Shown here piece after piece: positions 21,516-21,539 of a DNA stretch of 64,000 bases. Each line of letters starts with the position of its first letter. Positions within the stretch are counted from its first letter, which is position 1. The translations under genes and the position numbers were made by a program. Source of the DNA: Escherichia coli (lineage in GTDB: Bacteria; Pseudomonadota; Gammaproteobacteria; Enterobacterales; Enterobacteriaceae); the NCBI RefSeq assembly GCF_041886205.1, contig NZ_CP169029.1; one strand, 5' to 3'. The notes below the pieces were generated by a model. The model had not been told where the DNA came from, made no database searches, and worked only from the letters and a program-made list of their open reading frames with translations.

Positions 21516-21539
21516 TAGCTAATAAATATTAGCTAAAAA
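21516..21539. promoter_or_regulatory. Perfect palindrome TTTAGCTAAT-AAAT-ATTAGCTAAA, candidate operator in the hydrolase promoter
   Basis: 10-bp arms, 4-bp spacer, no mismatches; 26 bp upstream of the hydrolase start codon and in the region shared with the divergent LacI-family gene. Confidence 0.45.

Follow-up and report, generated by a model that had tools for sequence, protein, structure and literature searches.

An AT-rich perfect palindrome upstream of a GH5-like hydrolase operon in Escherichia coli as the probable operator of a divergent LacI-family regulator

Operators of the LacI/GalR family of transcriptional regulators mostly share a recognisable centre. Of 1303 family motifs, 1173 have a central CG, while 49 have another centre and 29 a degenerate one, giving 78 in which the centre is not CG (PMC4052901). 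At the protein level, the central CG accompanies the lever residue Leu-54 (82% of the family) and Ala-51, exceptions being rare, and Arg-20, the last residue of the TVSR peptide, accompanies a G at operator position 6 (Camas 2010, PMC2978694). Two further groups of described systems are relevant to the locus considered here. LacI-family sites that overlap at a distance of about 13 bp have been described for 110 operons, for example those of E. coli GntR at gntKU, and the mechanism behind them is unexplained (Ravcheev et al. 2014, PMC4052901). CytR, on the other hand, requires its operator to lie no more than 5 nt from CRP sites, usually between two of them (PMC3454398).

Here we consider a divergent gene pair in E. 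coli whose intergenic spacer of 185 nt carries a perfect, AT-rich palindrome. The window, by which we mean the whole stretch of 64,000 nucleotides (64 kb) that was analysed, contains the following genes of this module:

18939-20354, minus strand: GPH-family glycoside:cation symporter (MFS_2), 471 aa, second gene of the operon
20405-21490, minus strand: GH5-like (clan GH-A) cytoplasmic glycoside hydrolase, 361 aa, first gene of the operon (PF00150, 30 bits)
21676-22683, plus strand: divergent LacI-family regulator, 335 aa, a presumed repressor with HTH_LacI and Peripla_BP domains

On the comparative evidence set out below, the palindrome is most probably the operator of this divergent repressor (21676-22683), through which the GH5-like hydrolase/GPH symporter operon would be controlled.

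The hydrolase is annotated as 'cellulase family glycosylhydrolase', some of its homologues being named '1,4-beta-xylanase', and 1,793 homologues at E<=1e-20 extend from Enterobacterales to Planctomycetota and Chloroflexota. There is no NCBIfam model for it, and neither its sequence nor a profile of 20 sequences retrieved a meaningful relative from the PDB, the best match (E=1.3e-3) covering only a short stretch. Of 5,426 complete E. coli genomes, six carry the three-gene module, and their spacers are at least 99.3% identical. In the window the module (17233-22683 and flanks; locus L001) is placed between a broken autotransporter gene with an IS3 fragment on one side and tcuRABC on the other, with hipBA nearby; the small number of genomes that carry it, together with the neighbouring IS3 fragment and broken gene, marks it as a rare accessory island of this species. 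Both the regulator and the hydrolase are frequent in Enterobacter, Leclercia, Lelliottia, Klebsiella, Cronobacter, Serratia and other genera, where their annotations are without exception generic.

On the plus strand, the palindrome is the perfect inverted repeat TTTAGCTAATAAATATTAGCTAAA at 21514-21537, without a single mismatch between its arms, in the local context ...aatgTTTAGCTAATAAATATTAGCTAAAaagt... A sequence-only reading of the window had already proposed a 24-bp palindrome without mismatches as a candidate operator at this place. Its existence, length and perfection stand, whereas the coordinates given for it (21516-21539) have to be moved 2 bp to the left; the arms of the 10-4-10 form described are indeed perfect, but each is one base longer, so that the form is 11-2-11 with an AA centre. 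The distance to the hydrolase start codon, put at 26 bp, was found to be 23 nt (ATG at 21490, minus strand), the centre of the palindrome lying about 35 nt before this ATG, and on the other side the palindrome is 138 nt upstream of the ATG of the LacI-family gene (21676). Each arm includes one copy of the octamer TTAGCTAA (21515-21522 and 21529-21536, 14 bp apart), which is self-complementary, and the palindrome is therefore an inverted and a direct repeat at once. The palindrome and the elements around it, several of them predicted, are as follows:

21497-21501, minus strand: Shine-Dalgarno sequence GAGGA of the hydrolase gene
21504-21519, minus strand: O2, a second, degenerate dyad GCTAAACATTATTATC (hydrolase orientation), overlapping O1 at an offset of 14 bp
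21514-21537: the 24-bp palindrome, 11-2-11, TTTAGCTAATA-AA-TATTAGCTAAA, with arms 21514-21524 and 21527-21537 and centre AA
21515-21531, minus strand: invariant block TAAT-A-WWW-ATTAG-C-TAA (hydrolase orientation), from 18 aligned Enterobacterales sites
21518-21533: O1, the core dyad GCTAAT-AAAT-ATTAGC (CTAAT-N4-ATTAG), favoured as the predicted site of one repressor dimer
21546-21551, minus strand: putative -35-like hexamer TTGTGC (TTGCTC in most orthologs), in a conserved TTTG block
21569-21584, minus strand: predicted CRP-like site TGTGAGGGGAGTCTCT, with conserved TTTGTGA-N6-TCGCT
21644-21649, plus strand: TATGAT, the -10-like hexamer of the regulator gene, conserved in orthologs

To assess how often such a repeat arises by chance, the 185-nt spacer was shuffled 20,000 times under a first-order Markov model, loops of up to 6 nt being allowed. 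Perfect inverted repeats with arms of at least 11 nt arose in 4 of the 20,000 shuffles (p=2e-4), and arms of at least 10 nt in 14 (7e-4), which agrees with the earlier judgement that a perfect palindrome of this length is unlikely by chance in this spacer; the earlier remark that the element is AT-rich and without a central CG was likewise confirmed, its centre being AA. Just five perfect repeats with arms of 10 nt or more occur in the 64-kb window, the palindrome among them, and the other four are found at 48576-48603, 48644-48668, 50271-50297 and 63419-63446 (e.g. TGTCCCGAAACGAACCCGTTTCGGGACA). No second match to the full palindrome pattern was detected in the window with up to three mismatches allowed.

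Comparison with orthologous sites separates the conserved part of the palindrome from the part peculiar to E. coli. The full 24-bp perfect palindrome is seen only in the E. coli copy; what is conserved is the inner 14-17 bp (CTAAT-N4-ATTAG plus CTAA), the outer 4-5 bp being E. coli-specific. Thus the E. coli TTTAGCTAAT is replaced in the closest relatives by CAACTAAT (E. mori, whose regulator is 94% identical), TACTAAT, CTGCTAAT or CAGCTAAT, and O1 is kept as CTAAT-AWWT-ATTAG in all close orthologs. When the 18 Enterobacterales sites are aligned, every position of TAAT, ATTAG and TAA reaches 2.0 bits, the flanking A and C 1.5-1.7 bits and the three central bases, restricted to W, about 1 bit, and conservation drops on either side of the block. 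This invariant enterobacterial block corresponds to the palindrome core plus one additional half-site. The second dyad, O2, shares its central GC with O1 and ends 2 nt from the Shine-Dalgarno sequence, and its counterparts are better formed in Kluyvera (GCTAATAATTATTAGC), Serratia and Cronobacter. The number of bases that separate CTAAT from ATTAG differs between lineages and is fairly constant within each: Enterobacteriaceae and Aeromonas have N4, Vibrionaceae N3 and Yersinia N2; the offset between tandem dyads is 14 bp in Enterobacteriaceae (the window included) and Aeromonas, 13 bp in Vibrio and Photobacterium and 12 bp in Yersinia. A tally of half-site spacers by regular expression was dropped, as it was confounded by AT-rich spacers.

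For the wider footprint, a scan with a hydrolase profile over one genome per GTDB species gave 79 loci, to which exact-protein look-ups added five more. The divergent regulator/GH5(/GPH) layout was detected by tblastn in Enterobacter, Pluralibacter, Rahnella, Pseudocitrobacter, Kluyvera, Superficieibacter, Yersinia, Aeromonas, Vibrio, Photobacterium and Succinivibrionaceae, with regulator identities from 90% down to 33%; the divergent module is also present in Leclercia, Serratia and Cronobacter, and altogether the architecture is seen in more than 25 loci of Enterobacterales, Aeromonas, Vibrionaceae and Succinivibrionaceae. The sequence-only reading had pointed to orthologous modules in other genomes as the place to look for the same palindrome, and its core was found there in all 22 non-redundant spacers, those of Vibrio included, at 29-71 nt before the GH5 start. 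In an unbiased count of k-mers shared by these 22 spacers, the top entries were AGCTAATA (22/22), ATTAGCTA (21/22), TTAGCTAA (20/22) and TATTAGCTAA (20/22). Outside the close relatives the spacers cannot be aligned, yet each of them has the motif, and elsewhere in the 4-9-kb loci the exact octamer is hardly ever found.

The distribution of the octamer could further be compared between GH5 genes with and without the regulator. Among 24 GH5 genes with a nearby regulator of this clade, 20 have the exact octamer within 150 nt upstream, and the remaining four, all from Succinivibrionaceae, have an octamer with one mismatch or a site farther upstream. The exact octamer precedes only 2 of the 53 GH5 genes that have no clade regulator and is missing from the other 51 (Fisher p=1.4e-12, the loci being counted without regard to kinship). 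As for the two exceptions, in L011 the regulator lies beside a second GH5 copy of the same locus, and L030 is a second GH5 copy of Superficieibacter electus, whose regulator is at L024. In Rahnella bonaserana (L006:3860-4003), where the regulator and the transporter have been lost, ATTAGCTAATAATATTAG has decayed to GACAGCTAAACATGTCAT while the CRP-like and -35-like blocks are kept. Raoultella sp. HC6 (L088) has an orphan regulator, 87% identical, with neither GH5 gene nor octamer. Additional sites are observed in Vibrio, Photobacterium and Yersinia at 17-45 nt before the start codon of the regulator itself, and a complete motif copy of V. crassostreae, ATATTAGCTAATATTATTAG (L023:1598-1625), lies 72 nt upstream of galM, the galactose-1-epimerase gene (1677-2741) that adjoins the regulator gene.

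These observations bear on the identity of the binding factor, which the sequence-only reading had left open to a factor other than the adjacent regulator. A global binder of AT-rich DNA such as H-NS, Fis or IHF, or some other specific regulator, would suit a site that is AT-rich and unlike canonical LacI/GalR operators. However, the motif follows the regulator clade across orders of Gammaproteobacteria (20/24 against 2/53) and is missing from GH5 loci that are without it; it decays where the regulator is lost and precedes the regulator's own gene. Moreover, an exactly conserved palindromic core of 10-17 bp is atypical of H-NS, Fis and IHF sites, and a global binder of AT-rich DNA is hard to reconcile with a single instance in the 64-kb window. 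Binding by another factor is hence considered unlikely, and the co-occurrence, the decay on regulator loss and the sites before the regulator gene and galM together indicate the local regulator rather than a global factor.

The galM site in V. crassostreae suggests that the regulon there may include a mutarotase and that the GH5-like enzyme may release a beta-hexose, and it hints at a beta-hexoside as the sugar concerned. In Aeromonas sanarellii (L011) there are two GH5 paralogues, one accompanied by the transporter and the other divergent from the regulator, and copies of the motif precede each of them (3956; 8517 and 8531).

The position of the palindrome relative to the promoter was deduced from nine close spacers, which align without indels from the TTTGTGA-N6-TCGCT block to the operator. 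The CRP-like site is 17 nt upstream of the -35-like hexamer, Rahnella showing the same arrangement (CRP, 17 nt, TTGCAG), and the AT-rich operator starts 14 nt downstream of this hexamer. An AT-rich -10 element would then have to fall 14-18 bp downstream of the -35-like hexamer, inside the palindrome, and transcription is expected to start near 21516, which would place the centre of the CRP-like site near -60/-61, a class I position. A consensus scan of 21350-21800 for sigma-70 promoters and terminators gave no match; the promoter elements are therefore derived from conservation and their exact hexamers are uncertain. The regulator gene has its TATGAT 106 nt from the palindrome, so that in E. 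coli, in contrast to the vibrios, the regulator is not predicted to control its own gene.

Some other features of the spacer may be mentioned here. The CRP-like sites of Yersinia (CGTGATGTGTATCACT) and Photobacterium (TGTGACTGATCGCACA) are more clear-cut than that of the window. The 10-mer TCACGTTTCT (hydrolase-strand reading) at 21606-21615 is invariant in eight of nine close orthologous spacers; it keeps a fixed distance to the CRP-like site and a variable one to the regulator -10, and does not resemble the operator motif. RNA folding of 21488-21513 (minus strand) predicts a hairpin that would pair CAUUAUUAUCU with the Shine-Dalgarno sequence and AUG of the hydrolase mRNA. An intrinsic terminator was rejected as an interpretation of the palindrome, there being no terminator-like site in the scan of 21350-21800, and so was a CRP site, as the palindrome has no TGTGA inside.

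If the -10 element indeed lies within the palindrome, the conserved AT-rich block could be nothing other than core promoter (-10, discriminator, UP-like), with the symmetry of the E. coli copy a by-product. The -10-like hexamers TAATAT and TATTTA inside the block, and a conserved -35-like hexamer 17 nt upstream, would be in line with this. Promoter elements, however, need neither dyad symmetry nor an invariant ATTAGCTAA; in Rahnella bonaserana it is the AT-rich block that decays after the loss of the regulator, whereas the CRP-like and -35-like blocks stay; and the motif recurs at non-equivalent positions before the regulator gene and galM. We regard a purely promoter-related origin of the conservation as very unlikely.

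Instead of being a DNA site, the palindrome could also work as an RNA hairpin in the 5' leader of the hydrolase mRNA and influence its stability or translation. The leader RNA does fold into two successive hairpins, the first of 10 bp and the second on the Shine-Dalgarno sequence and AUG (-13.6 kcal/mol, z=-3.8), but the hairpin energy is not maintained: it is -8.9 kcal/mol in E. coli and ranges from 0 to -5.9 kcal/mol in 14 orthologs, while the sequence motif is invariant. The stem is conserved in sequence and shows no compensatory changes among the aligned orthologs. In addition, the conserved -35-like block predicts a transcription start inside the palindrome, in which case only one arm would be transcribed, and in other lineages the motif occurs as tandem units and before other genes. 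A role as an RNA structure is accordingly rated as highly improbable, and the palindrome is treated below as a DNA operator.

Within an operator made of abutting half-sites, the unit bound by one dimer can be read in two registers. In the first, register A, a dimer would occupy the AT-centred CTAAT-N-ATTAG, and this we consider the likelier arrangement; in the second, register B, the dimer site would be the GC-centred ATTAG/CTAAT. The GC-centred unit is the only one with constant internal spacing in all lineages, which speaks for register B. Register A is favoured by the invariance of its two halves in Enterobacterales, against a variable far half in the next unit, by its half-site orientation, TAA..TTA, which is the canonical one of the family, and by T/A variants at the outer bases that change symmetrically together in Cronobacter and in Vibrio (L020). 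The Yersinia N2 site, GCTAAT-AT-ATTAGC, can be superimposed position by position on the canonical 14-mer, as in cre TGTAAGCGCTTACA; that it has C and not G at position 6 is expected with a regulator in which Leu replaces Arg at residue 20. In register B, which is disfavoured, just 5 bp would separate the half-site cores, and their orientation would be opposite to that of canonical family sites.

The regulator itself is a member of the family, with Pfam matches to PF00356 (52.8 bits), PF13377 and PF00532 and PDB matches to RbsR, CcpA, PurR and LacI at E<=1e-24. It reaches no NCBIfam equivalog, the best partial matches, RbsR and CytR, being far under their cutoffs. On a MAFFT alignment with E. 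coli LacI, PurR, RbsR and CytR, its recognition helix reads VSQATVSL, or VSQ[A/S/P]TVSL across the clade, so that Y17, Q18 and R22 of LacI correspond to Q, A/S/P and L, and TVSL stands where the family has TVSR. There is a two-residue insertion after helix 3, and the hinge is shorter by two residues, with Ile58 at the position of LacI A53 and Pro61 at that of L56 (YDRLPAIHAPRNQ). The lever position is P, M, D or Q in the enterobacterial members of the clade and P in Yersinia, and is L or M only in Vibrionaceae. In the AlphaFold2 model of the regulator (pLDDT 87), residues 50-65 form coil, with pLDDT below 50 at 54-61; a model of RbsR, taken as a control with a comparable alignment, has a short hinge helix at 49-54, also of low pLDDT. 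The missing hinge helix in the model is thus supportive but weak evidence for an atypical hinge. Judging from these alignments, the atypical operator appears to go together with atypical hinge and recognition residues: the lack of a central CG may be explained by a regulator without the hinge Ala and Leu that insert into the CG, and with Leu in place of the Arg that reads the G at position 6.

The elements of the locus can be combined into a mechanism. The operator would be placed between the CRP-like and -35-like elements and the ribosome-binding site, over the AT-rich -10/start region, and a bound repressor covering the -10/+1 region would block RNA polymerase from the promoter. The half-site recognised would be CTAAT/ATTAG; a first dimer would sit on the AT-centred dyad CTAAT-N4-ATTAG (21518-21533) and a second on the weaker overlapping dyad 14 bp downstream, the two sharing the invariant central GC. 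The imported glycoside, or its product, would free the repressor from the operator. The initial suggestion that the palindrome may bind the adjacent LacI-family regulator in an atypical way is thereby supported by the conservation of the motif, its co-occurrence with the regulator, its decay and the non-canonical hinge.

A bolder reading, which we consider doubtful, is that this regulator clade has dropped the hinge-helix/CG-kink mode altogether and loads several dimers on abutting CTAAT/ATTAG half-sites in a 12-14-bp register, with neighbouring inner headpieces on opposite faces of the helix. If true, it would make a convenient system in which to study the 13-bp overlap, so far unexplained, that is seen at about 110 LacI-family operons, and would show half-site spacing (N2, N3, N4) drifting after loss of the hinge constraint. 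The more conservative interpretation, on the features of the sequence, is that this is an ordinary local LacI/GalR repressor-operator switch in a CRP-type sugar operon, of unusual AT-rich sequence, and it reveals no new type of regulation.

The regulator clade and its motif appear not to have been characterised previously. A literature search for ATTAGCTAAT gave only unrelated matches, such as primers, and neither the operator motif nor the recognition-helix peptide is present in the searched part of the RegPrecise LacI supplement (PMC4052901); its Yersinia entry 'BglR y3567' concerns a different protein. The present results may be useful in several ways. They assign a motif, arrays of CTAAT-N2-4-ATTAG, and a target operon to a widespread, generically annotated LacI-family clade of Enterobacterales, Aeromonas and Vibrionaceae, and improve the regulon annotation of the GH5-like hydrolase/GPH transporter module. 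They also provide a natural example in which an operator with an AT centre and no CG is tied to a regulator that has lost the hinge Leu/Ala and Arg-20 and, if binding is confirmed, a small orthogonal repressor/operator pair of possible use in synthetic biology.

Compared with the local operators of canonical LacI/GalR systems (LacI O1/Osym, PurR, GalR, CcpA cre, RbsR), the locus has the same divergent regulator with HTH_LacI and sugar-binding core, an operator that is palindromic and lies 30-140 nt upstream of the start codon (here a dyad of 16-24 bp centred at 35 nt, the operators of the family being inverted repeats of about 14-22 bp), a sugar catabolic/transport operon with a CRP-like site, and half-sites of the TAA..TTA form; the Yersinia spacing, GCTAAT-AT-ATTAGC, fits the 14-mer geometry. 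Both this position and the tandem offset of about 13 bp agree with the statistics of the family. It differs in its centre, which is AA (or GC in the alternative register), conserved only as W and without CG, in half-sites that are 2 bp farther apart in E. coli and its relatives, and in a regulator lacking the hinge Ala-51 and Leu-54 in which TVSL replaces TVSR. Since 78 of the 1303 family motifs have a centre other than CG, the missing CG is compatible with membership of the family.

With CytR, one of the two best partial NCBIfam matches of the regulator, the system shares a proline-rich hinge without the leucine lever (LPQPMGRNV in CytR, DRLPAIHAP here), the absence of a central CG and a CRP site, here a CRP-like one, in the promoter. 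A variable half-site spacing may be a further resemblance, the spacer being 4, 3 or 2 bp by lineage but fairly constant within each. The regulator is, however, not an ortholog of CytR (NF008269, 161.8 bits against a cutoff of 436), and the half-site is CTAAT and not TTGCA, in a site that is strongly conserved and palindromic. The single CRP-like site is 31 nt from the palindrome, as against the 5 nt or less required by CytR, which makes steric repression more likely than anti-activation. A CytR-type module was rejected because the operator is not adjacent to a CRP site and the regulator is not orthologous.

The operators of phage 434, ACAA-N6-TTGT, are 14-bp dyads in which base recognition is limited to the outer 4-5 bp, the AT-rich central bases being constrained to A/T without sequence specificity. 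The AT-centred site described here may be likened to them by analogy only, as the 434 repressor belongs to an unrelated protein family, and no homology is claimed. The class of LacI-family sites overlapping at about 13 bp is comparable in having two or more dyads at an offset of 12-14 bp, with inner bases shared and the arrangement conserved in an orthologous group. The motif and the regulator are different in our case, and the offset varies by lineage.
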